Assembly (NCBI GenBank): GCA_049967535.1
Contig: JBMFSN010000001.1
Location: 1 to 57,625 of the forward strand
Source: Minisyncoccia bacterium
GTDB lineage: Bacteria; Patescibacteriota; Minisyncoccia; UBA6257
Length of the DNA stretch: 57,625 bases
Reading direction: 5' to 3'
Position 1 is the first letter of the stretch. Each line of letters opens with the position of its first letter. Below the pieces are notes generated by a model. The model made no database searches. It saw only the letters and a program-made list of their open reading frames with translations, and was not told where the DNA came from. Made by a program: the position numbers and the translations under genes. Shown in pieces: positions 44 to 55,980 of the stretch.

Positions 44-82
44 TTTAAAAATTAAAAATTATAAAATTAAAAATTGATTTAT
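44..82 (+). repeat. Intergenic heptamer-repeat cassette (AAAATTA type) directly upstream of rpoD
   Basis: tttaaaaattaaaaattataaaattaaaaattgatttat. The 31 nt at 48..78 are identical to 6765..6795 upstream of rpsK. Confidence 0.8.
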
Positions 83-2587: not shown

Positions 2588-4374
2588 CCTCTGAAGAATT
2601 AAGACAACAATTTTTAGATTTTTTTAAGGAAAAGGGACATAGAATAATACCTTCTTCCTCTTTAATTCCTGAAAACGACCCCTCTGTGCTTTTTACTACC
2701 GCTGGGATGCAACAATTTAAATATTACTATACAGGCAAGCAAAATCCATTAGTTGATAAACATTTTAGTATAAGTGAGCCTTTAAATAACAAAAATGTTG
2801 CTACTTGCCAAAAATGTTTAAGGACAAGTGATATCGAGTCAGTGGGCGATCAAAGCCATTTAACATTCTTCGAAATGTTAGGCAACTTTTCTTTTGGCGG
2901 TTATTTTAAAAAAGAAGCAATTACATTTGCTTATGAATTATTAAATTCCAAATTCCATATTCCAGATTCTAGAATAACTGTTACCGTATTTGAAGGAGAT
3001 AAAAACATTCCTCGTGATGAAGAGTCAGCAAAAACTTGGTATCAATTTGGTTTTTCTGAAAAGAACGGCAATTTACTTTTTTTGGGTAAAGATAGTAACT
3101 TTTGGGGTCCTACTGGAAATGAAGGACCATGCGGTCCTACTACAGAAATTTATGTTGACGGGATAGAAATTTGGAATTTAGTTTTTAATGAGTATTATAA
3201 ACATTTAGACCAAACTCTTACTCCTTTAACTATTAAAGGAGTAGATACAGGAATGGGCTTAGAAAGATTAGCTTTAGTAACCCAATATCCTCAGGATAAA
3301 AACAAAACTATTTATGATACGGACTTATTTCAAGATTTATTAACTTATCTTAAACATCAAGGCACTAAACAAGAGAGCGATAACTTATATCGTATTATTG
3401 CTGACCATTTTAAAGCTAGCGTTTTTTTGGCCGGGACTGGTATTGTTCCTTCTAACACCCAGCAAGGTTATATTTTGAGAAGATTAATTCGAAGAATTGT
3501 TCGCTTTAGTAAAATTTTAAATTTCAAAAACAATTGGATAGCAGAAGCCTATGAAATTATTAAGGAAAAATATGGTTATTTTTACCCAGAAATAAATAAT
3601 CAAGAGGAAATTTTATCTATCATAGACCAAGAAACTAATAAATTTGAATCTAGTTTAATAAAAGGATTAAAAGAATGGCAAAGAATAGTTAGTCAACTAT
3701 CAGAACAGGAAAAAACTATTCCTGGGGCAACAGCCTTTTATTTATACGAAAGTTATGGTTTTCCCATAGAAATTTTAGAAGAAATGGCTAAAGAAATAAA
3801 TAAAACAGTAGATCGTTCTTCTTTTGAAGCAGAATTTCAAAAACACCAAGTTATTTCTCGCGCAAGCCAAGAGAAAAAATTTGGCGGGCACGGAATAAAT
3901 GAGGTCAAAGACGAAGACAGCAAAAAACAAATTATAAAATTACATACTGCTACCCATTTACTTTTAGCTGCCTTAAGACAAATTATTGATTCTAAAATTG
4001 AGCAAAAAGGTTCTGATATTACCCCAGAGAGATTACGTCTAGATTTTCCTTTTTCTAGAAAATTAACAGAAGAAGAAATTAAAAAAATAGAAAATTTAAT
4101 TAATCAAAAAATTCAAGAAAACTTAGAAGTTCATTTCTATGAAACAAATTATGAGCAAGCAATTAAAGAGGGAGCTCTTGGTTCTTTCAAAGACAGATAC
4201 CCGGAAAAGGTAACTGTTTATGAAATAAAAAGTCCCCAGGATAATACGATTTTTTCTAAAGAGATTTGTGCTGGTCCTCATGTTTCTTCAACTAAGGAGA
4301 TGGGGGTGTTTAAAATTATCAAAGAAGAATCTGTAGGACAAGGCATAAGACGGATTAAAGCAACTCTAATTTAA
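2584..4374 (+). CDS. alaS: Alanine--tRNA ligase (short form, 596 aa)
   Basis: FTTAGMQQFK class II core, GPCGPTTEIY, and editing-domain motifs HTATHLL and CAGPHV. It ends shortly after the editing domain. Confidence 0.9.
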   Translation: MTSEELRQQFLDFFKEKGHRIIPSSSLIPENDPSVLFTTAGMQQFKYYYTGKQNPLVDKHFSISEPLNNKNVATCQKCLRTSDIESVGDQSHLTFFEMLGNFSFGGYFKKEAITFAYELLNSKFHIPDSRITVTVFEGDKNIPRDEESAKTWYQFGFSEKNGNLLFLGKDSNFWGPTGNEGPCGPTTEIYVDGIEIWNLVFNEYYKHLDQTLTPLTIKGVDTGMGLERLALVTQYPQDKNKTIYDTDLFQDLLTYLKHQGTKQESDNLYRIIADHFKASVFLAGTGIVPSNTQQGYILRRLIRRIVRFSKILNFKNNWIAEAYEIIKEKYGYFYPEINNQEEILSIIDQETNKFESSLIKGLKEWQRIVSQLSEQEKTIPGATAFYLYESYGFPIEILEEMAKEINKTVDRSSFEAEFQKHQVISRASQEKKFGGHGINEVKDEDSKKQIIKLHTATHLLLAALRQIIDSKIEQKGSDITPERLRLDFPFSRKLTEEEIKKIENLINQKIQENLEVHFYETNYEQAIKEGALGSFKDRYPEKVTVYEIKSPQDNTIFSKEICAGPHVSSTKEMGVFKIIKEESVGQGIRRIKATLI

Positions 4375-6731: not shown

Positions 6732-6800
6732 AATTGAGTATTCAGTATTGAGTATAATTGTTTTAAAATTAAAAATTATAAAATTAAAAATTGATATAAA
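6732..6800 (+). repeat. Intergenic modular heptamer-repeat cassette (TTGAGTA module, AATTGTTTTAAAA joint, AAAATTA module)
   Basis: aattgagtattcagtattgagtataattgttttaaaattaaaaattataaaattaaaaattgatataaa, immediately before the rpsK ATG. Confidence 0.85.
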
Positions 6801-7241
6801 ATGGGGAAAAAACGAGTTGTTACTAAATCAGGAGAAGACCTGAATAAAATTGAAGAAAAAATTAGTTCTTCTCAAGCCAAAGCTTCTAAAGCCCTTTTAG
6901 AAAAGGGGAGAATTTATATTGCTGCTTCGTATAATAATACTCTTATTTCTTTAACTAATTTAAAAGGAGAATTAATTGCTTGGAGCTCTGCTGGTACTTT
7001 AGGTTTTAAAGGACCCAAAAAAGCAACTCCTTTTGCTGCTTCTAAGGTAGTGGAGGCTTTACTAGAAAAAGTTCAAAAAAGCGGATTAAAAACAGTAGAG
7101 GTTTATGTTAAAGGCATAGGAGGAGGTAGGGAATCAGCTATTCGTTCTTTAGCTACTCATGGTTTAGATATTGATTTAATTAAAGACGTTACTCCTATTC
7201 CCCACAACGGACCTAGGCCACCTAAAGTTAGAAGAGTATAA
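6801..7241 (+). CDS. rpsK: 30S ribosomal protein S11
   Basis: GRIYIAASYNNTLISLTNLKGELIAWSSAGTLGFKGPKKATPFAA and DVTPIPHNGPRPPKVRRV. Confidence 0.95.
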   Translation: MGKKRVVTKSGEDLNKIEEKISSSQAKASKALLEKGRIYIAASYNNTLISLTNLKGELIAWSSAGTLGFKGPKKATPFAASKVVEALLEKVQKSGLKTVEVYVKGIGGGRESAIRSLATHGLDIDLIKDVTPIPHNGPRPPKVRRV

Positions 7242-7285
7242 AATATTAAATTATTTTTCAAAATTTTAACAACATTGGTATTTCT

Positions 7286-7900
7286 ATGGATGCTGAATGC
7301 AAAAAATGTAGAGCAGTAGGAGAAAAACTTTTTCTCAAAGGAGAAAAATGCTATACCCCAAAATGTCCTATGACAAGAAGAGGAATAGCTTATCACGGAA
7401 AGAGCAAAAGAAAACCTGCCCTTACTCCTTATGGCAGACAATTAATAGAAAAACAGAAAGCTAAATTAATTTACGGAATTAGAGAAAAACAGTTTCATCG
7501 TTATTTTGATTTAGCTTACAAGAAAAAGGGAGCTACTCCTGATATTCTAGCTAGTATGTTAGAAAAAAGATTTGATAATGTTATCTATCGTTCTGGTTTT
7601 GCTTTGAATAGAGCTTCCACCAGGCAATTAGTCTCTCATGGCCATTTTTTCCTCAATGGAAGAAAACACAATATTGCCTCTACGATTTTAAGAAAGGGTG
7701 ACGTTGTTTCTCTTAATCCTATCAGTCTTCAAAAGAAAGTATTTAAAGATATAAAAGAACGTCTAAAAAAATATACTGCCCCTAAATTTCTCGAAGTAGA
7801 TCCGGAAAAACTTACTAGCCGAGTAATCGCTGAGCCAGATTTGGAAGAATTAAAAATGAATATTGATTTTCCTTCAATAGTTGAATTTTATAGTAAATAA
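7286..7900 (+). CDS. rpsD: 30S ribosomal protein S4 (zinc-ribbon type)
   Basis: CKKCRAVGEKLFLKGEKCYTPKCP N-terminus, YGRQLIEKQKAKLIYGIREKQF, and an S4 RNA-binding domain (RQLVSHGHFFLNGRKHNIAS). Confidence 0.95.
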   Translation: MDAECKKCRAVGEKLFLKGEKCYTPKCPMTRRGIAYHGKSKRKPALTPYGRQLIEKQKAKLIYGIREKQFHRYFDLAYKKKGATPDILASMLEKRFDNVIYRSGFALNRASTRQLVSHGHFFLNGRKHNIASTILRKGDVVSLNPISLQKKVFKDIKERLKKYTAPKFLEVDPEKLTSRVIAEPDLEELKMNIDFPSIVEFYSK

Positions 7901-7986
7901 TTGAGTATTGAGTATTGGGTATTGAGTATAATTGTTTAAAAATTGTAAATTGTAAATTAGAAATTGTAAATTTTAACAACATTAGT
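7901..7986 (+). repeat. Intergenic modular heptamer-repeat cassette (TTGAGTA x4, AATTGTTTAAAA joint, AAATTGT x4)
   Basis: ttgagtattgagtattgggtattgagtataattgtttaaaaattgtaaattgtaaattagaaattgtaaatt followed by ttaacaacattagt. The ORF track reads this as a spurious N-terminus of rpoA. Confidence 0.85.
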
Positions 7987-8919
7987 ATGTTTCAATTACC
8001 AAGTTCAATTCAAAAAATAGAGCAGTTAAAAAATTACGGCAAATTTGAGATTGATGGGCTATATCCTGGATATGGCATTACTCTTGGTAATGCTCTAAGG
8101 CGGGTTTTAATTTCATCTTTACAAGGAGCAGCGGTAACTTCTTTTAAAGTGGAAGGAGTTCAGCACGAGTTTAGTGCTATTCCTTATGTGATGGAAAGTG
8201 CCCTGGATTTAATGCTTAATCTTAAACAAATCCAAGTAAAAAATTATAGTAATGAACCTCAAATATTAATAATGAATATTTCCGGAGAAAAAGAAGTAAC
8301 TGCTAAAGATTTTGATAAAAATGCTATGGTAGAGATTTTAAATCCAGAATTGCATCTTGCTACTTTGACAGATAAAAAAGCTAAACTAAATATGGAAGTT
8401 ACCATAGAAAATGGTTTGGGTTATGTTTTAGTAGAAGAAAGAAGCAAAGAAAAATTACCTATTGGCACTATTGCCGTAGATGCCATGTTTAGCCCTGTTG
8501 TTCGAGCAAATTTTAAAGTAGAAAATATGCGAGTAGGGGACAGAACCGACTACAATAAACTAATCATTGAAATTGAAACTAATGGTTCAATAACTCCTGA
8601 TATTGCTCTAGCTCAAGCCTCTCAGATCTTAAAAGAACATTTTGAACTTATTGAGAGCAAATTTACTCCAGAAGAAGAAATTAAAACTAATGTTTCTTCG
8701 GCATTCAAACAAGAAAAAAAGGAACCCAAAGATATTATGATCGAAGATTTAGAATTAAGTGCCAAAACTAAAAATACCTTAATTAATAATGGTATTAAAA
8801 CCTTGGCGGGCTTACTGCGTTATCGAGAAGATAAATTATCTAATTTTGAAGGATTAGGACCAAAATCATTAGAAGAAATAAAAAAGGTATTACAAAATTT
8901 AGAATATACTTTAAAATAA
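7987..8919 (+). CDS. rpoA: DNA-directed RNA polymerase subunit alpha
   Basis: GYGITLGNALRRVLISSLQGAAVTS and a C-terminal HhH domain (LELSAKTKNTLINNGIKTLAGLL). Start moved to ATG 7987 because the track's TTG 7915 start lies inside the repeat cassette. Confidence 0.9.
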   Translation: MFQLPSSIQKIEQLKNYGKFEIDGLYPGYGITLGNALRRVLISSLQGAAVTSFKVEGVQHEFSAIPYVMESALDLMLNLKQIQVKNYSNEPQILIMNISGEKEVTAKDFDKNAMVEILNPELHLATLTDKKAKLNMEVTIENGLGYVLVEERSKEKLPIGTIAVDAMFSPVVRANFKVENMRVGDRTDYNKLIIEIETNGSITPDIALAQASQILKEHFELIESKFTPEEEIKTNVSSAFKQEKKEPKDIMIEDLELSAKTKNTLINNGIKTLAGLLRYREDKLSNFEGLGPKSLEEIKKVLQNLEYTLK

Positions 8920-12638: not shown

Positions 12639-12773
12639 ATAAAATTCAATTTTCAATTACCAATTTTCAATTTACAATAAATTTTCAATGATTCAATTTC
12701 TAATGTTTGAAAATTATAAAATTGTAAATTCAATGAAAATTGTAAATTAGAAATTGTAAATTATAAAATTATT
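12639..12773 (+). repeat. Long composite intergenic repeat (TTTTCAAT module plus AAATTGT module), a dispersed family
   Basis: 12705..12762 matches the reverse complement of 43227..43284 at 56/58. The left part (caataaattttcaatgattcaatttctaatgttt) recurs at 21449..21570 (reversed) and 28415..28470. Confidence 0.85.
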
Positions 12774-13964: not shown

Positions 13965-14086
13965 AGTATACTGTATAATACAATTTACAATTCACAATTT
14001 ACAATGAATTTTCAATGATCCAATTTTCAAACAACGCTTGTTTCTAATTGTAAATTGTAAATTAAAAATTAAAAATTTTATAGCCC
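13965..14086 (+). repeat. Composite intergenic repeat with inverted ACAATTT / AAATTGT arms
   Basis: caatttacaattcacaatttacaatgaattttcaatgatccaattttc ... ctaattgtaaattgtaaattaaaaattaaaaatttta. The two arms are reverse complements of each other. Confidence 0.8.
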
Positions 14087-15583
14087 ATGGATGACCCTAA
14101 AACTCCACAAAAATTATTTGCCCCCCGAGTTCGTTTAGCACCCAGTCCTACTGGTTGGTTTCATATTGGTACGGCAAGAACTGGCCTTTTTAATTTTCTC
14201 TTTGCCAGAAAAAATGGAGGAAAATTTATTCTAAGAATTGAGGATACAGATAAAATTCGTTCTAAAAAAATTTATGAAGAGAATATTATTAATGGCCTTC
14301 GTTGGTTAGGTTTAGATTGGGATGAAGGGCCAGAAAAAGAAGGAGATTTTGGACCTTATTATCAAAGCCAAAGAACTGATATTTATAAAAAATATTTAAA
14401 GCAATTATTAGATGAGGGGAAAGCTTATTATTGTTTTTGCACCCCAGAAGAATTAGAAGCCCAAAGGGCAAATATGATTTCTCAAGGTTTAGCTCCCAAA
14501 TATTCAGGGAAATGTCGTAATTTGCCAGCTTCAACAGTAAAACAATATCTTGATGAGAAAAAGCCAGCAGTTATTAGGATAAAAATGCCTAACACCACTA
14601 TTTCTTTTGATGATTTAATTAGGGATAAAGTAGAGTTTGACCTTAATTTAATAGGGGATATTGTGATAGCTAAGAGCTTAGAAGAACCCTTGTATAATTT
14701 TAGTGTTGTAATTGATGACTATTTGATGCAAATAACGCACGTAATTCGCGGAGAAGACCATATTAGCAATACGCCCAAGCAGATTGTTATCCAGGAAGCC
14801 TTGGGCTTTCCTAGGCCCATTTATGCGCATTTACCAATGATTTTAGGCTCTGATAGGTCAAAATTAAGCAAAAGACATGGAGCAACAAGCCTTACAGAAT
14901 ACCAAAAATTAGGTTATTTACCAGAAGCTATAAATAACTTCTTGGCTCTTTTGGGCTGGCATCCTTATGGAGATAATGAAGTGATGACTCTAGAAGAATT
15001 GATAGATAAGTTTGATTTATCTCGAGTACAAAAGGGAGGAGCAATTTTTAATTTACAAAAATTAGATTGGTTTAATGCTCAATATTTAAAAAATATTCCT
15101 TTTGATCAGCTTTTCCAATATTTTCTTAATTATTTAAAAACATTTACTCCTCAGATTAATTTATCTCAATTCGATGAAATTCGATTAAAAAAAATTTTAG
15201 AATTAGAAATTTCCAGAATTACTAAATTCAGCGACCTTCTAGACTCATCGGATTTCTTTTTTCAAGAAACCCTTCATTATCCTAAAGAGTTGTTAAGCTG
15301 GAAAGGTGAGAGAGAAGAGGATATTAAACAAGCTCTTAACGATGCTTTGAATATCATCCAAAGTATTAAAGAGGAAGATTTTAATCAAGTTAATATTCAA
15401 ACAAGGTTTTCTAACCTTATTGATTCTCAATCATTATATCAAGAAAATAGAGGCAAGATTCTCTGGCCGTTAAGAGTGGCTCTCTCCGGTAAAAAAGCCT
15501 CAGCTGGGCCATTTGAAATAGCAGAAATTTTAGGTAAAAAAGAAACGATAAGAAGAGTTAAAAAGGCGATTGAACTAGTTTAA
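14087..15583 (+). CDS. gltX: Glutamate--tRNA ligase
   Basis: RLAPSPTGWFHIGTARTGLFNF (HIGH), IRGEDHISNTPKQ and KLSKRHG (KMSKS). Confidence 0.9.
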   Translation: MDDPKTPQKLFAPRVRLAPSPTGWFHIGTARTGLFNFLFARKNGGKFILRIEDTDKIRSKKIYEENIINGLRWLGLDWDEGPEKEGDFGPYYQSQRTDIYKKYLKQLLDEGKAYYCFCTPEELEAQRANMISQGLAPKYSGKCRNLPASTVKQYLDEKKPAVIRIKMPNTTISFDDLIRDKVEFDLNLIGDIVIAKSLEEPLYNFSVVIDDYLMQITHVIRGEDHISNTPKQIVIQEALGFPRPIYAHLPMILGSDRSKLSKRHGATSLTEYQKLGYLPEAINNFLALLGWHPYGDNEVMTLEELIDKFDLSRVQKGGAIFNLQKLDWFNAQYLKNIPFDQLFQYFLNYLKTFTPQINLSQFDEIRLKKILELEISRITKFSDLLDSSDFFFQETLHYPKELLSWKGEREEDIKQALNDALNIIQSIKEEDFNQVNIQTRFSNLIDSQSLYQENRGKILWPLRVALSGKKASAGPFEIAEILGKKETIRRVKKAIELV

Positions 15584-15639
15584 AAATTTAAACATTAAGA
15601 CATTATTTAAAAATTAAAAAATTAAAAATTTTTAAAAAT
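15584..15639 (+). repeat. Intergenic AAAATTA-type heptamer cassette
   Basis: aaaatttaaacattaagacattatttaaaaattaaaaaattaaaaatttttaaaaat, before ATG 15640. Confidence 0.7.
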
Positions 15640-21448: not shown

Positions 21449-21570
21449 GAGCAATTATCAATTTACAATTTACAATTTACAATCAATGTCACAATTTTAC
21501 AATTTTTAAACATTAGAAATTGAGTCATTGAAAATTTATTGAAAATTGAGAATTAAAAATTAGAAATTCC
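21449..21570 (-). repeat. Long composite intergenic repeat (reverse orientation) between convergent genes
   Basis: The reverse complement reads ...caattttcaataaattttcaatgactcaatttctaatgtttaaaaattgtaaaattgt...attgtaaattgtaaattgtaaattg, the same architecture as 12639..12773. Confidence 0.8.
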
Positions 21571-25795: not shown

Positions 25796-26100
25796 TTTGC
25801 TTCTGGCCTAAATTTTAAAAGAAGTATTGAGTATTGAGTATAAAAGTTTAAAATTCAAAAATCAAAAAAGACCCTACGGGGAGTCGCAAGCGACTGCAAA
25901 ATGTAAAATGACAATATAAAGTTTAAAAAAGTAAATTTTAACATTTTAAACTGTCATTTTGATTTTTGATATTTACATTTTGAATTAAAAAAGCATTTAT
26001 GATTCGTAATTTCCATAATTTTGAGTTTCGGGTTATAAGTTTACAAATTATAAGGATTATGATTAAAAATTGTAAATTAGAAATTGTAAATTTCTAAAAC
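25796..26100 (+). repeat. Complex 305-bp intergenic region: heptamer modules, a large imperfect inverted repeat and a GC-rich mini-palindrome
   Basis: gtattgagtattgagta (25824..25840). caaaatgtaaaatgaca (25896..25912) pairs with tgtcatttt...atttacattttg (25952..25982). AGTCGCAAGCGACT lies at 25881..25894. attaaaaattgtaaattagaaattgtaaatt sits before the fmt ATG. Confidence 0.7.
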
Positions 26101-27042
26101 ATGCGCTATATATTTTTCGGTTCATCTGAGTTTGCAAAAATAATACTTCAAGAGCTTCTTGAATCTGATATGAAGCCTCTTTTAGTTATTACTCAACCAC
26201 CAAAGCCAAAAGGAAGAAAGCAAATTCTCTCCCCTACCCCAGTACAACTTTTTGCTGAACAAAATAAACTACCAGTTTTAACACCAGAAAATTTGAATAA
26301 TTTAAATTTCTTAAAACAAATTGAAGATATTAATCCTAATTTTATTCTTCTCACTGCTTACGGAAAAATTATTCCTTCTTCACTGATTAAATTGCCACCT
26401 TTTGGTTTTTTAAATTTACACCCCTCGCTTTTACCAAAATGGCGCGGCGCGACTCCAATTCAATCTGCTATTTTAGAGGGAGAAACGGAAACTGGAGTTA
26501 CCTTATTTAAAATGGATGAGCAAATTGACCATGGCCCAATAATTCAGTATACAGTATACAGAATACAGTATACAAGGATTACTTATTTGGAATTATCACA
26601 ACAGCTAGCACAAGTCGGCGCTAACTTAATCATTAAAACTCTTCCCCAATGGCTTGAGGGAAAAATAATTCCTCAACCTCAAAATGAACAATTAGCTACT
26701 TACTGCCATAAAATTACTCCGGAAGACGAAAAGATTAATTGGCAAACAAGTGCTGAAGAAGTTGATAGAAAAGTAAGAGCTCTGAACCCTAGTCCTGGCA
26801 CTTATACTATTATCCAAGACAAAATTCTTAAAATTATCAGTGGCTCACCTTTTATTGATAATTCTCTTTCCAAAAATAAAAAAGAAGGAGAAATTTTTGA
26901 AACTTCTAACCATAAAATAGCCATCCAATGCCATAATAGTATTTATCAAATTGATTTTTTAAAACCAGCAGGTAAAAATATAATGACGAGTCAGGATTTT
27001 TTACGAGGCAATCAATGGGTTTTAGGACAAATTATTTCATAA
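26101..27042 (+). CDS. fmt: Methionyl-tRNA formyltransferase
   Basis: FFGSSEFA, LNLHPSLLPKWRGATPIQSAIL, and C-terminal domain NPSPGTYT. def-fmt pair. Confidence 0.9.
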   Translation: MRYIFFGSSEFAKIILQELLESDMKPLLVITQPPKPKGRKQILSPTPVQLFAEQNKLPVLTPENLNNLNFLKQIEDINPNFILLTAYGKIIPSSLIKLPPFGFLNLHPSLLPKWRGATPIQSAILEGETETGVTLFKMDEQIDHGPIIQYTVYRIQYTRITYLELSQQLAQVGANLIIKTLPQWLEGKIIPQPQNEQLATYCHKITPEDEKINWQTSAEEVDRKVRALNPSPGTYTIIQDKILKIISGSPFIDNSLSKNKKEGEIFETSNHKIAIQCHNSIYQIDFLKPAGKNIMTSQDFLRGNQWVLGQIIS

Positions 27043-27620: not shown

Positions 27621-28414
27621 TAACCAATGCTAGCATAACCGACTACTTGGCTTTTGTCTCCTGTAATCTCGCCTGAATTTAAAGAGCAAAGCAATTTTGA
27701 TTGCCATTTTCTCTTTTGAGCAATCTCTATTAAAACTTCGATGCCAGTTTTACCACAAGCTTCACCGTATTCTTCTAATCTTTGAATATCGTTGTCTAAA
27801 ATAGCATCAATTGTCACTTTATCTAATTGTTGCGCTTCATGATAGGGATAATAATGACTTAAATCAGAACTGATAACTAATAAAGTAGTTTCATCCAAAA
27901 GTTTGTCAATAATACCCGCTGCTTGTTGAGGATTAACTTCTCCTGTCAAAAAAGGAATAATTTTAAAATTTTGAAGAATCGTTTGAAGATAAGGTAATTC
28001 TACTTCTAAACAATGTTCTGGCTCGTGAATCTCTGAAGATTCAATAATTTCTTCACTATTTTTTACCTCTTTTAAGTTTTCTTTTCCCAAGGATTCTACT
28101 TGGCCTAAAGGAGTTTCCCAAATACCCTGAGGACTAAGAGCTAGACCTTGAAAGCTAAAATGATGGCTAGGGCCTAAAAGAATAATTCTTTGATAGGAAT
28201 AATTTTGTAAAATCTTAAAACCGTAAGCCGCTACTGGCCCAGAATAAATATAACCAGCGTGGGGAACAATAATCGCTTTTGGTGAAAAATCAAATTTTTC
28301 TACTGTTGCCTGATGCAAAAACTTGTCAATCATCTCTTTTAAAGCCCGAGGTTCATTAGGGTAAAAAGTTCCCGCAAATTGTGGTGAACGAATAAACATA
28401 AATGCAATTTTCAA
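27593..28414 (-). CDS. amrB: Memo-like protein (AmmeMemoRadiSam system protein B)
   Basis: PHAGYIYSGPVAAYGF, LGPSHH, SSDLSHY and EACG. Confidence 0.8.
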   Translation of the reverse strand: MKIAFMFIRSPQFAGTFYPNEPRALKEMIDKFLHQATVEKFDFSPKAIIVPHAGYIYSGPVAAYGFKILQNYSYQRIILLGPSHHFSFQGLALSPQGIWETPLGQVESLGKENLKEVKNSEEIIESSEIHEPEHCLEVELPYLQTILQNFKIIPFLTGEVNPQQAAGIIDKLLDETTLLVISSDLSHYYPYHEAQQLDKVTIDAILDNDIQRLEEYGEACGKTGIEVLIEIAQKRKWQSKLLCSLNSGEITGDKSQVVGYASIGYYSSLNSST

Positions 28415-28509
28415 TTATCAATTCTCAATTTTCAATAAATTTTCAATGATTTAATTTTTAATTTTCCCCATTTTAAATACAGAATACAAAATACTAGATA
28501 CTAAATACT
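28415..28509 (-). repeat. Intergenic modular repeat cassette (sense to the minus-strand gene)
   Basis: Plus strand: caattttcaattatcaattctcaattttcaataaattttcaatgatttaatttttaatttt...aaatacagaatacaaaatactagatactaaatac. Confidence 0.8.
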
Positions 28510-31691: not shown

Positions 31692-31804
31692 GATAATAAT
31701 TCAAAAGTCAAAATTTAGTATTCAGTATTGAGTATTGAGTATTGGGTATAATTGTTTAAAAGTTAAAAATTAAAAATTTATTATTGTATTCCAGATTCAT
31801 AATT
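31692..31804 (+). repeat. Intergenic modular heptamer cassette in plus orientation between two minus-strand genes
   Basis: tagtattcagtattgagtattgagtattgggtataattgtttaaaagttaaaaattaaaaattt. Orientation is opposite to the flanking genes. Confidence 0.85.
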
Positions 31805-33890: not shown

Positions 33891-33961
33891 ATTAGTAATT
33901 TTAAATTTTAAATTTAAATTTTAAATTTTTTAACCTTTATACTTAATACTCAATACTTATT
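33891..33961 (-). repeat. Intergenic modular repeat cassette (sense to the minus-strand gene)
   Basis: Reverse complement: aataagtattgagtattaagtataaaggttaaaaaatttaaaatttaaatttaaaatttaaaattactaat, then ATG. Confidence 0.8.
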
Positions 33962-41590: not shown

Positions 41591-43334
<1,744 letters not shown>

Positions 43335-43758: not shown

Positions 43759-44823
43759 TTACTCTCCATTAGTTTCCTCAAAGTCTTCTGATGGTTTATC
43801 TATTTCTAATGGTTCGGTTCCTATTTTTTTACCAGAAATATGATAAACATCTTTATCAATTTTGCTTAATTCTTTATAGGCAGAATTATACATTCCTACT
43901 GTCGTTCCTAAATGATTACCTAATTTTTGCATATAAGTTTCATAACTCATCAAATGGCGGCCTAATTCTTCTACTCTCTTTTTAATTTCTTTAGCGGATT
44001 CTTCAATTTCTAAAGCCTTTAATCCCTGAAGAACAGTTTGTAAATAAGCCAAAAAAGAAGTAGGAGAAACAATAATGACTTTCTTCTCTCCCATGGCATA
44101 TTCAATTAAGTCCCGAGTATTAGCTTTAATCGCTCCGATACGGTTAATTAATAAATCATAGTAAATAGCTTCGGAGGGAATAAACATAAAGGCGAATTCC
44201 ATCGTCCCCTCTTCTGGTTTAATGTATTTAGAAGTTTCATCAATCCTGGTTTTTAAATCATTTCTAAATAAATCTTCCAGCTTTTTCTTTTCTGTTTCGT
44301 CATGAGCTTCTAAAATACGATTATAATTTTCTAAACTAAATTTAGAATCAATAGGAATTATTTTATCTTTTATAAAAATAACTGCATCTACTGCTGTCCC
44401 ATCTTTAAAAGCATATTGAGTTTGATAGCTCCCCGGCGGTAAAACATTTTTTAAAACTGTTTCTAAGTAATATTCTCCAAGAACTCCCCTCTGTTTGGGA
44501 TTAGTTAAGGTATCTTCTAATTTACGCAATTGGTCGGTAAAATTAATTACTTGTTTATTAGTTTCATCTAGTTTAGTTAATTTTTCTGTCACTTCTTTAA
44601 TCATTTGGGCGCTCTGTCCAAATTGGTTCTGAAACATATGGGTTGACTCTCCTAATTTATTATCTAAAGTTCTCACAATCTCCTGAATTTGATTTTGGAG
44701 TAATAACAACGACTGTTCATCTTTCACCTCTCTCTGGTTCCCCCTTTCTTTTAAAAACAAAATGATTAAAAAAAATAAACCTATTAAAATTAATCCAATT
44801 AAAAAATATAAAATAGTGAGCAT
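43759..44823 (-). CDS. rmuC: DNA recombination protein RmuC
   Basis: N-terminal TM, coiled coil, then the RmuC core (RGVLGEYYLE, IPIDSKF, FAFMFIPSEAIY, VIIVSPTSFLAYL). Confidence 0.85.
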   Translation of the reverse strand: MLTILYFLIGLILIGLFFLIILFLKERGNQREVKDEQSLLLLQNQIQEIVRTLDNKLGESTHMFQNQFGQSAQMIKEVTEKLTKLDETNKQVINFTDQLRKLEDTLTNPKQRGVLGEYYLETVLKNVLPPGSYQTQYAFKDGTAVDAVIFIKDKIIPIDSKFSLENYNRILEAHDETEKKKLEDLFRNDLKTRIDETSKYIKPEEGTMEFAFMFIPSEAIYYDLLINRIGAIKANTRDLIEYAMGEKKVIIVSPTSFLAYLQTVLQGLKALEIEESAKEIKKRVEELGRHLMSYETYMQKLGNHLGTTVGMYNSAYKELSKIDKDVYHISGKKIGTEPLEIDKPSEDFEETNGE

Positions 44824-44870
44824 AAATATAATAATAAATTTTTAATTTTTAATTTTTAAACTTTTGTTTG
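44824..44870 (-). repeat. Intergenic AAAATTA-type heptamer cassette (sense to rmuC)
   Basis: Reverse complement: caaacaaaagtttaaaaattaaaaattaaaaatttattattatattt, then ATG. Confidence 0.75.
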
Positions 44871-51778: not shown

Positions 51779-51814
51779 CCAGAATTTGGCCTGCCTGCGC
51801 AGGCAGGAATCTGG
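51779..51814. repeat. GC-rich perfect palindrome with extended arms
   Basis: CCTGCCTGCGCAGGCAGG (51790..51807) is an 18-bp perfect palindrome, flanked by CCAGAATTT / AATCTGG arms. Confidence 0.7.
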
Positions 51815-51890
51815 AATCTGGAATACAATAATACATTTTTAATTTTTCATTTTTAAACAATTATACTCAATACTCTATACTCAATACTTC
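51815..51890 (-). repeat. Intergenic modular heptamer cassette oriented toward hrcA
   Basis: Plus strand: aatctggaatacaataatacatttttaatttttcatttttaaacaattatactcaatactctatactcaatacttc. This is the reverse complement of the TTGAGTA / AATTGTTTAAAA / AAAATTA architecture. Confidence 0.8.
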
Positions 51891-55868: not shown

Positions 55869-55980
55869 TTTGGAATAAATTTTTAATTTTTAATTTTTAA
55901 ACAATTATACTCAATACTGAATACAGAATACAGAATACTGAATACTTATTTTTGTTATTTGGAATTTTAAATTATAATGT
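55869..55980 (-). repeat. Intergenic modular heptamer cassette in reverse orientation between two plus-strand genes
   Basis: aaatttttaatttttaatttttaaacaattatactcaatactgaatacagaatacagaatactgaatac. Confidence 0.85.

Follow-up and report, generated by a model that had tools for sequence, protein, structure and literature searches.

What are the short tandem repeats that lie between the ribosomal protein genes of a member of the Minisyncoccia, and how did they get there? The question is raised by contig JBMFSN010000001.1 of assembly GCA_049967535.1 (Minisyncoccia bacterium, Patescibacteriota), of which positions 1 to 57,625 of the forward strand, referred to here as the window, were analyzed. The window is contig C1 of a genome (G000) of 600,546 bp in 106 contigs with 32% GC, and it holds the rpsM-rpsK-rpsD-rpoA-rplQ operon. 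Gene calls for G000 came from a crude greedy caller of open reading frames (ORFs), so that coding and intergenic labels are approximate. An initial annotation had described cassettes of 7-nt units in the spacers of this window. On balance, by a modest lean, we read these cassettes as orphan, gene-less derivatives (arms and fragments) of small elements resembling intervening sequences (IVS), altered by replication slippage. Since the same heptamers form the arms of a gene-carrying element in related genomes, the cassettes are most likely remnants of selfish DNA that lack the gene, and not a regulatory device built for the purpose.

The 7-nt periodicity is real and specific to this period. Intergenic DNA of G000 showed an identity of 0.324 at lag 7, against about 0.30 at adjacent lags, with harmonics at 14 and 21, and the lag-7 signal was absent from the coding DNA. 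A strict array criterion was used for comparing periods (at least 16 of 18 lag matches, the same for all periods, in spacers of at least 30 nt), and the null model for array counts consisted of dinucleotide-preserving shuffles. By this criterion 52 period-7 arrays were found in 240 spacers, far above the 0.1 given by shuffles, and periods 4-6 and 8-12 gave 0-3 arrays in the same spacers. Genome-wide, 123 arrays were intergenic and 43 'coding', though only 12.5% of the genome is intergenic. The joint that links the arrays (GAGTATAATTGTTTAAAA, at most one mismatch) had 14 matches in G000, and its reversed control had 0. Tandem units of 7 nt beyond chance and their enrichment in intergenic DNA, the hallmark of heptanucleotide long simple-sequence repeats, are therefore both present. 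Tandem Repeats Finder lists arrays at the positions given in the initial annotation, and its description of a dispersed, modular, 7-nt-periodic repeat family stands. Its statement that cassettes fill most intergenic spacers was too broad, as a strict array is present in 15 of 38 spacers of at least 30 nt in the window and in 61 of 240 genome-wide. An Rfam scan of the window returned one tRNA as its sole match and no family covering the cassettes.

It is scarcely credible that the cassettes are artefacts of assembly or binning. G000 is a metagenome-assembled genome (MAG) of 106 contigs in which some joints lie at contig ends, and the bin includes contigs identical to those of G007, a genome of the same family but of a different genus. 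Against such an origin, most cassettes are found in the middle of long contigs, and the same cassettes occur at orthologous sites in G007, which was independently assembled (MAG JBAMLJ01). Arrays were not enriched at contig ends, being present at 6 of 212 ends (2.8%) versus 95 of 5000 random windows (1.9%). The composition of the bin is an observation in its own right. Proteins on G000 contigs C38, C51, C13 and C20 are 93-100% identical to those on G007 contigs C106, C121, C44 and C104, most G000 contigs are only 60-80% identical to G007 in protein, and two gatA copies, on C18 and C38 of G000, are 87% identical to one another. The bin probably mixes two related co-occurring populations, or these populations recombine; the near-identical contigs indicate that the populations co-occur or were cross-binned, and exchange between them is possible.

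A complete cassette exceeds the three modules described initially. It consists of module U (AATTCAAAAGTCAAAA), module A, (AGTATTS)n, the joint J (GTATAATTGTTTAAAA), module C, (ATTAAAA)n, the hexamer TTTATT and module D, (ATTCCAR)n, and it sometimes continues into a GC hairpin, CCTGCCTGCGCAGGCAGG. Cassettes of the A-joint-C-D type are called family 1 below. In the operon, module A starts at 6733..6755 (+ strand) with TTGAGTA/TTCAGTA heptamers, 2 nt past the stop codon of rpsM (S13), and is followed by the joint at 6750..6767 (+; GAGTATAATTGTTTTAAA, one mismatch, TATAAT inside) and by an A-rich (AAAATTA)n module C at 6764..6792 (+), which ends 8 nt short of the rpsK (S11) ATG at 6801. Four TTGAGTA units at 7900..7929 (+) stand immediately after the stop codon of rpsD (S4), where the G007 ortholog starts alike with TAA followed by TTGAGTATTGAGTATTGG; an exact joint GAGTATAATTGTTTAAAA (7924..7941, +) and a module C variant of AAATTGT/AAATTAG units (7940..7976, +) complete this second cassette.

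In relatives, module A and the TATAAT of the joint form the arm of an element that carries a gene for a protein of the 23S_rRNA_IVP/S23p family (PF05635), here called the IVP gene. In genome G022 (locus L129) this element runs from (GTATTCA/GTATTCT)n through GTATAAT and AAATTAGAT to the ATG of the IVP gene (125.9 bits, cut-off 33.8) and on to (TACAGAA)n. Module A and the joint's TATAAT, which stands 9 nt ahead of the IVP start codon, make up its left arm, and their reverse complement makes up its right arm; in related genomes the left arm has the general form (GTATTCW)n+GTATAAT. A near-identical element is present at another site in G005 (L146). Arms of (GTCAAAA)n, equal to module U, were found on contig C29 of G022 and in G008. 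At the pilD-pilin junction the element of G022, both arms included, measures about 520 nt, and in G012, G015, G018 and G020 the spacers are short and array-free. This comparison of one filled site with four empty congener sites indicates that arms and gene came, or went, together.

The association is general. Among the 39 best-scoring IVP loci with adequate flanks, the two flanks matched in inverted orientation (upstream against reverse-complemented downstream) at z>4 in 35, and an inverted-flank score of at least 18 was reached in 25 of the 39; in direct orientation, the control, 1 of 39 reached it. Period-7 arrays were present in one or both flanks of 25 of the 39 genes; inverted arrays of the same unit on both flanks were found at only 5 of 450 G000 genes, which served as the comparison set. 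Within the family 10 of 27 genomes have PF05635, and within the order 70 of 121, where genomes of about 0.7 Mb hold as many as 7 copies; five genomes of the window's own family that were drawn in the order-level sample do not have it. In G000 neither a profile match nor a tblastn remnant (E<0.1) of PF05635 was found. G000 does have, at C8:5160-5417, a gene-less pair of module A and its reverse complement; the pilin gene downstream of this pair has a leader peptide encoded by an array. Type IV pilin genes begin within the right-arm array at C8:5162-5201 of G000 and at L129 of G022, and because they start there, the leader peptides MFYTKYKIQNTKYS-HGFTLIEM and MKLFNTEYRIQNTEYS...KGFTLIEM are heptamer-coded.

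These elements recall a known kind of insertion. Intervening sequences with an S23p/23S_rRNA_IVP gene are known from Coxiella, Leptospira and Xanthomonas (PMC4990558), and IVP ORFs have been found in rRNA insertions of the Candidate Phyla Radiation (CPR; PMC11270868). In Coxiella the 23S rRNA IVS encodes S23p; strains differ in how many tandem GACAGAT heptamers stand upstream of this ORF, and RNase III cuts the stem formed by the terminal inverted repeats (PMC4990558). The likeness is close, as in the relatives of G000 the PF05635 gene stands between complementary arms able to form a long stem, heptamers of variable copy number immediately precede the ORF, the elements behave selfishly in that a given site is filled in some genomes and empty in others, and the host encodes RNase III (C2:36954-37343 in G000). 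The differences are that the elements lie between and inside protein-coding genes instead of in helix 25 or 45 of the 23S rRNA, that their arms consist almost wholly of heptamer arrays, and that G000 has orphan arms only, mostly single, without the IVP gene. Complementary termini of the IVS type were seen in four palindromic cassettes of the window and at C8:5160-5417, but not in the A-joint-C cassettes at 6732 and 7901.

On this basis we propose the following course of events. The ancestral elements would have been foldback units with tandem heptamer arrays as arms and the IVP gene as loop. In this family of Parcubacteria, elements and pieces of them would have been copied, by some copy-and-paste route, to positions of low harm, namely gene-gene spacers and surface loops of proteins, and retained where harmless. 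Replication slippage would afterwards add or remove entire 7-nt units and make each array more uniform internally. Module A with the TATAAT of the joint would represent the inner end of a left arm, the TATAAT being probably the -10 box of the IVP gene in gene-bearing copies; module U would be the arm of a second element type, and the palindromic (CAATTTW)n/(WAAATTG)n cassettes would be arm pairs without a gene. We infer that the G000 cassettes descend from IVP elements and not the reverse. Judged from sequence, later co-option of individual cassettes as promoter, A-rich leader or RNase III site is possible.

Local birth of the arrays by slippage that favours 7-nt units, without element identity or any link to IVP genes, would make them plain long simple-sequence repeats. 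Comparison with relatives bears on this directly. Among the genomes compared, the joint has 15 copies in G007 and a single copy in each of G001 and G030, the 37 other relatives having none, and its exact 22-mer was found in G007 and G001 alone among 185,579 species representatives. Module A arrays gave 28 matches in G000, 40 in G007, and 1-2 loci in five other genomes of the family; none was found outside the family among the genomes searched. A tree of four proteins places the genomes as (G007,(G000,(L038-L043))). All members of this clade have expanded spacers between ribosomal protein genes, filled by different modules in each lineage (in L038-43 by GC-richer repeats followed by TTTAAAAATTAAAAATT), and at the same junctions outgroup spacers measure 8-35 nt. 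Within this pattern some cassettes are orthologous. The module A arrays of G000 and G007 begin at the same base after the rpsD stop codon, and three more pairs are found on G000 C10, C8 and C3 and on G007 L024, L021 and L017. Between the members of a pair, the differences are indels of exactly 7 nt and unit variants that have become uniform along an array, so that copy number changes by whole units between these relatives. A look-up of the exact S11 protein, aimed at near-identical strains, returned no entry.

The whole-unit indels and the homogenisation are what local slippage would produce, as are units that differ by lineage in the same spacers and in the same loop of tsaD. In many prokaryotes, moreover, no class of repeats is as over-represented as the heptanucleotides (Mrazek 2007, as cited in PMC4679880 and PMC4692102). 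Nevertheless, this explanation is improbable. It does not account for a fixed composite order with a unique 18-nt joint at no fewer than 14 loci in G000 and 15 in G007, for the occurrence of this composite and joint in only one further species among the 185,579 representatives, for the copying of a non-repetitive two-hairpin module into tsaD (below), for the insertion of array and gene together in G022 against empty congener sites, or for inverted arrays that flank IVP genes far more often than other genes. The unique joint and the insertion as a unit contradict pure slippage without element identity; in the reading that we favour, slippage acts on arrays that arrived as parts of elements.

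The same units are also found in frame in housekeeping genes, among them tsaD, ksgA, the two gatA copies, alaS, ileS and trmD. In tsaD of G000 a 16-amino-acid insertion (PEPHRVQGHKPHVVYG), absent from five orthologs, is a copy of the two-hairpin module, and this constitutes an in-frame insertion into a conserved protein gene of the kind made by Rickettsia palindromic elements (RPE). The module is about 60 nt long (CCCTGAACC-loop-GGTTCAGGG and CCATAAACC-loop-GGTTTATGG) and otherwise follows the joint in C8 of G000 and in about nine G007 cassettes; its G000 sites are C4:17750-17800 (tsaD), C8:15480, C11:11175 and C13:1006. Its second stem carries compensatory changes between copies (AAA/TTT versus GCA/TGC), three of which were seen by eye. 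The first hairpin is followed on the opposite strand by TTTTT and is thus terminator-like. A candidate target-site duplication, TTTTCAA on either side of the tsaD insertion, belongs to the local heptamers and was considered unconvincing. The TsaD loop GGPAI...LPRPM is coded by heptamer arrays in all six genomes, with units that differ. In fmt an (ACAGTAT)n-like array (26541..26574, +), read as IIQYTVYRIQYT, is not an insertion, as the corresponding segment is equally long in all five orthologs. An array of the module D type (ATTCCAA/ATTCCAG) lies in frame in alaS at 2942..2973 (+), where it encodes LNSKFHIPDSR. Regulatory selection cannot explain the coding copies, whereas copy-and-paste together with tolerance can.

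The initial annotation had suggested that the arrays act as unstructured ribosome landing pads, UP-like elements or binding arrays for a nucleoid protein. In its wider form this is the explanation that the cassettes are selected expression modules, with a TATAAT promoter, an A-rich leader that works independently of Shine-Dalgarno (SD) sequences by binding S1 or a cold-shock protein, and UP-like or protein-binding arrays; the foldbacks would be RNase III sites or bidirectional terminators. We hold it to be unlikely, although several observations favour it. An SD-like motif precedes only about 11% of G000 genes, which bears out the scarcity of SD sequences stated earlier, and leaders are A-rich. 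Sense cassettes span the distance from the upstream stop codon to the next ATG, A-rich arrays stand right before rpoA and rpsK in several relatives, three genera have kept the TATAAT at the array's inner end, with the IVP ATG 9 nt beyond it, and orthologous cassettes are conserved like coding DNA. There is precedent as well, as promoters are known on Correia and other small repeats (PMC10969869) and TAACTGA repeats have been proposed as translational elements (PMC4679880).

The orientation of the copies argues the other way. Most copies had been said to point toward the downstream gene, and a sense excess exists, but it is only about 2:1, with 10 sense and 6 antisense copies of module A and 9 and 5 of the joint in spacers between tandem genes; about one third of copies are antisense. 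Two copies, 31692-31804 and 55869-55980, are inverted with respect to the genes beside them and copy 21449-21570 lies between convergent genes, both as first described, and the occurrence of cassettes in both orientations supports the earlier conclusion that promoter function alone cannot explain the family. The stronger bias of (AAAAATT)2, 31 sense and 10 antisense, is about that expected from composition skew. In the 25 nt before start codons A makes up 45-50% and T 35-40%, and we estimate that this skew predicts a bias of about 1.2^6, or roughly 3-fold for a word with ten A and four T, close to that observed. A reversed-pattern control for (AAAAATT)n was uninformative, because the reversed pattern is nearly the same array. 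In this SD-poor genome, A/U-rich leaders are thus the usual state, whether or not they hold arrays.

The joint includes TATAAT; in the sequence, the array's TTGAGT hexamers stand 13 or 20 nt from it. In a promoter scan the joints at 6753 and 7926 were not called, with no -35 at 16-18 nt, and promoter-like sites overall (52, 45.3 expected) showed no excess; a canonical sigma-70 promoter at the joint was rejected for its wrong -35 spacing and the absence of a call. In long spacers a better promoter, TTGATT-17-TAAAAT, was read by eye beside the cassette. One such site is found in a 52-nt non-coding stretch upstream of the gene at C8:14329-15351, 100% identical in G000 and G007 (G000 C8:15352-15430; G007 L021), where it precedes a GC-rich leader and directly adjoins an antisense cassette. 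Both orientations, the in-frame copies within genes and the 8-35-nt spacers of outgroups that lack cassettes argue against a dedicated promoter or ribosome landing pad, and with a bias of the size that composition predicts and no -35 at the joint, the roles first proposed are not upheld. The two orientations, the coding copies with the tsaD insertion, the short outgroup spacers and the lineage-specific modules suggest a behaviour like that of selfish DNA.

If cassettes spread as selfish DNA, a classical route would be that of a miniature inverted-repeat transposable element (MITE) or repetitive extragenic palindrome (REP) moved in trans by a transposase, either a DDE enzyme or a Y1 enzyme of the IS200 or REP-associated tyrosine transposase (RAYT) type. 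Dispersed copies in both orientations and a patchy phylogenetic distribution are what such a system would leave, and a DDE_Tnp_1 fragment is present on the small contig C80 of G000. This route is nevertheless very improbable. The searches covered only four transposase and reverse transcriptase families, and within them Y1 transposase was not found in G000, G007, G002, G012 or G022, the rve domain not in G000, G007 or G022, and DDE_Tnp_1 not in G007, G022 or G005, while reverse transcriptase (RVT_1) was found in G007 only. Around family-1 cassettes neither terminal inverted repeats nor target-site duplications were seen. The RAYT/REP model was rejected for want of a Y1 transposase, and a telomerase-like or reverse-transcriptase origin of the arrays was rejected as well, RVT_1 being present in G007 and not in G000.

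Several points weigh against descent from IVP elements. Most A-joint-C-D cassettes are single-armed, with no inverted partner nearby; having one arm type, they are therefore not simple gene-less foldbacks. Among the IVP elements examined, nothing corresponds to modules C and D or to the right half of the joint. No enzyme that would copy the cassettes was found in the four families searched (Y1, RVT_1, rve and DDE_Tnp_1). Orthologous cassettes of G000 and G007 are 74-91% identical, compared with 68-98% for flanking coding DNA, values that low-complexity AT-rich alignments inflate for the cassettes. These cassettes are old and not freely decaying, and conservation at orthologous sites hints at constraint or gene conversion, which fit better than decaying junk. 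Descent may have run from element to orphan arm or from a pre-existing array to element arm. The single arms, the modules C and D without counterpart and the conservation at orthologous sites keep a secondary use of the cassettes alive as a rival explanation.

The remaining cassettes of the window are more varied than the claim of the same three modules in 15 spacers allows, as they fall into three classes of 8, 3 and 4. Eight spacers carry (GTATTSA)n (6732, 7901, 25796, 28415, 31692, 33891, 51815 and 55869), and in seven of these the joint, or a variant of it, is present as well; the exception is 28415. Its module A variant, (AGTATYT)n without a joint, lies at 28474..28509 (-) and is followed by (AAAATTG)-type arrays at 28405-28466, sense to minus-strand genes. 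A full cassette, at 31698..31798 (+), has U (AATTCAAAAGTCAAAA), A (31713-31749), the joint (31744-31761), C (31756-31778), TTTATT and a remnant of D, and is antisense to the flanking minus-strand genes. At 33897..33959 (-), module A (33935-33959), a joint variant (GTATAAAGGTTAAAAAA) and (AAATTTA)n (33897-33929) are sense to minus-strand genes. The cassette at 51806..51888 (-) occupies a divergent spacer, with A at 51863-51888, the joint at 51851-51868, C at 51835-51856 and D, (ATTCCAG)n, at 51806-51824, and runs on into the GC hairpin CCTGCCTGCGCAGG. That at 55869..55946 (-) has A at 55907-55946, the joint at 55895-55912, C at 55878-55900 and TTTATTCCAAA, and is antisense to the flanking plus-strand genes. 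At 25823..25853 (+), module A with the joint variant GAGTATAAAAGTTTAAAA opens a composite spacer of 305 nt that ends in (AAATTGT)n at 26062-26092, before fmt. Part of this spacer (25855-26060) shares a module of more than 100 nt, AAAGACCCTACGGGGAGTCGCAAGCGACTGCAAAATGTAAAATGACA..., with C20:3430-3560 of G000, and at both sites the module comes after an A-joint cassette.

A-rich arrays alone make up the second class (spacers 44, 15584 and 44824). (TTAAAAA)n arrays lie at 45..75 (+), where the window begins within the spacer, and at 15579..15639 (+); at 44837..44859 (-), GTTTAAAA(ATTAAAA)3TTTATT represents the right half of the joint plus module C, without module A, and is sense to the gene at 43759-44823. 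The third class consists of palindromic foldbacks, (CAATTTW)n-loop-(WAAATTG)n, without module A or joint, in spacers 12639, 13965, 21449 and 43214. They are assigned to neither strand and lie at 12645..12770 (RNA fold -24 kcal/mol, z -3.6), 13979..14077 (z -2.0), 21459..21566 (z -2.25; between convergent genes) and 43227..43330 (z -2.5). All four fold significantly as RNA (z -2.0 to -3.6), and about 17 foldbacks of this type are present in G000. A-joint-C cassettes showed no significant fold (z -1.7 to +1.6; +0.26 and +0.27 at 6732 and 7901).

Further recurrent sequences accompany the cassettes. A pre-start motif, TTTTAACAACATTAGT, at 7971..7986 (+) abuts the rpoA ATG at 7987 and occurs a second time at 7264-7278 before rpsD. 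The related motif TTTTAAYMACATTRGYATG ends in the start codon of at least eight unrelated genes, including rpsD, rpoA, an rplF-like gene and gatA (window 7264-7285 and 7971-7989; G000 C2:17212, C6:6649, C7:14423, C8:6642, C8:1512 and C18:5146), and is found before start codons in the related metagenome loci L041, L042 and L045; it may be a start-proximal translation signal or a leaderless-promoter signal in this SD-poor lineage. ATGCCCCACC was dropped as a recurrent start module, having only 2-3 relevant copies. A perfect GC palindrome, CCTGCCTGCGCAGGCAGG, flanked by direct CCAGATTCC repeats, occurs at about 51790-51826 in the window, at C3:39900-39940 in G000, at L017 in G007 and in the rpsD-rpoA spacer of L038; it is conserved beside a tRNA gene in G000 and G007 and present in closer relatives without module A. 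A CRISPR-like repeat, GTTGCATTCTTTCCCGCTTTGAAGGGAATTACGAC, with a variant ...CCCGTTTTGAAGGG..., has about 38 copies on small G000 contigs (e.g. C92:150-300).

How new is this family? The literature search found no description of the A-joint-C cassette, nor of heptamer-armed IVP elements outside rRNA in the CPR. The initial annotation did not recognise a described repeat family, and for the exact cassette this agrees with what was found in the literature and among species representatives; the kind, in contrast, is already known, from heptanucleotide long simple-sequence repeats and short tandemly repeated repetitive (STRR) sequences, TAACTGA repeats, IVS with S23p and RPE-like in-frame repeats. 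Heptanucleotide repeats include the STRR of Calothrix and Nostoc, TAACTGA of Beggiatoaceae, cyanobacteria and Bacteroidetes, and GGGAATC of Xanthomonas (PMC4679880, PMC4692102), and for the TAACTGA repeats MacGregor proposed a role of the promoter or leader type, as translational elements (PMC4679880). The arrays described here share with them tandem 7-nt units that are mostly intergenic and often abut start codons, in ribosomal protein operons too, occasional copies in ORFs, a patchy phylogeny and length variation between relatives. They differ in units and phylum, in the fixed order of several arrays around a unique non-repetitive joint, and in the association with a gene-carrying element in relatives.

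RPE, palindromes of about 100-150 bp as summarised in PMC10969869, are likewise small repeats without a transposase that lie in frame in unrelated housekeeping genes and in spacers. Measured against that summary, the sequences here are heptamer arrays instead of palindromes, their coding copies span 20-50 nt, and several of these (fmt, the tsaD loop) have similar length in all orthologs and are not clean insertions. The mosaic intergenic repeats BOX/RUP/SPRITE of pneumococci (PMC3049150, as reported in PMC10969869) and the bacterial interspersed mosaic elements (BIME), REP and REP doublets forming hairpins (REPIN) of E. coli (PMC3116915) are similarly modular, with a variable number of internal units, both orientations, clustering or nesting in spacers and some modules that resemble terminators or promoters. 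Unlike BOX, BIME and REPIN, the cassettes have no RAYT or Y1 transposase, are built of 7-nt arrays and not of 35-45-nt boxes, and show no sequence similarity to them.

An excess of heptanucleotides among bacterial simple repeats has been known since 2007 (Mrazek 2007, as cited in PMC4679880 and PMC4692102), with no agreed cause. The same units with the same TATAAT end, as orphan cassettes in G000 and as element arms in relatives, give a testable origin for part of this excess, the candidate being arms of IVS-like S23p elements acted on by slippage. The four-helix-bundle IVP protein would be a candidate binding partner for the arrays. A broader generalisation, toward which we are more doubtful than inclined, is that heptamer-array foldbacks with an IVP/S23p gene form a widespread, undescribed class of insertable elements outside rRNA in the CPR, that their orphan arms are the source of the heptanucleotide excess, and that some arms (array, TATAAT and A-rich leader) have been domesticated as promoter and leader in operons like rpsM-rpsK-rpsD-rpoA. 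The cassettes further show how far such repeats can shape a CPR genome of 0.6 Mb, both in what little non-coding DNA it has and in loops of essential proteins; this matters for gene calling, MAG assembly and promoter inference in uncultured CPR bacteria.

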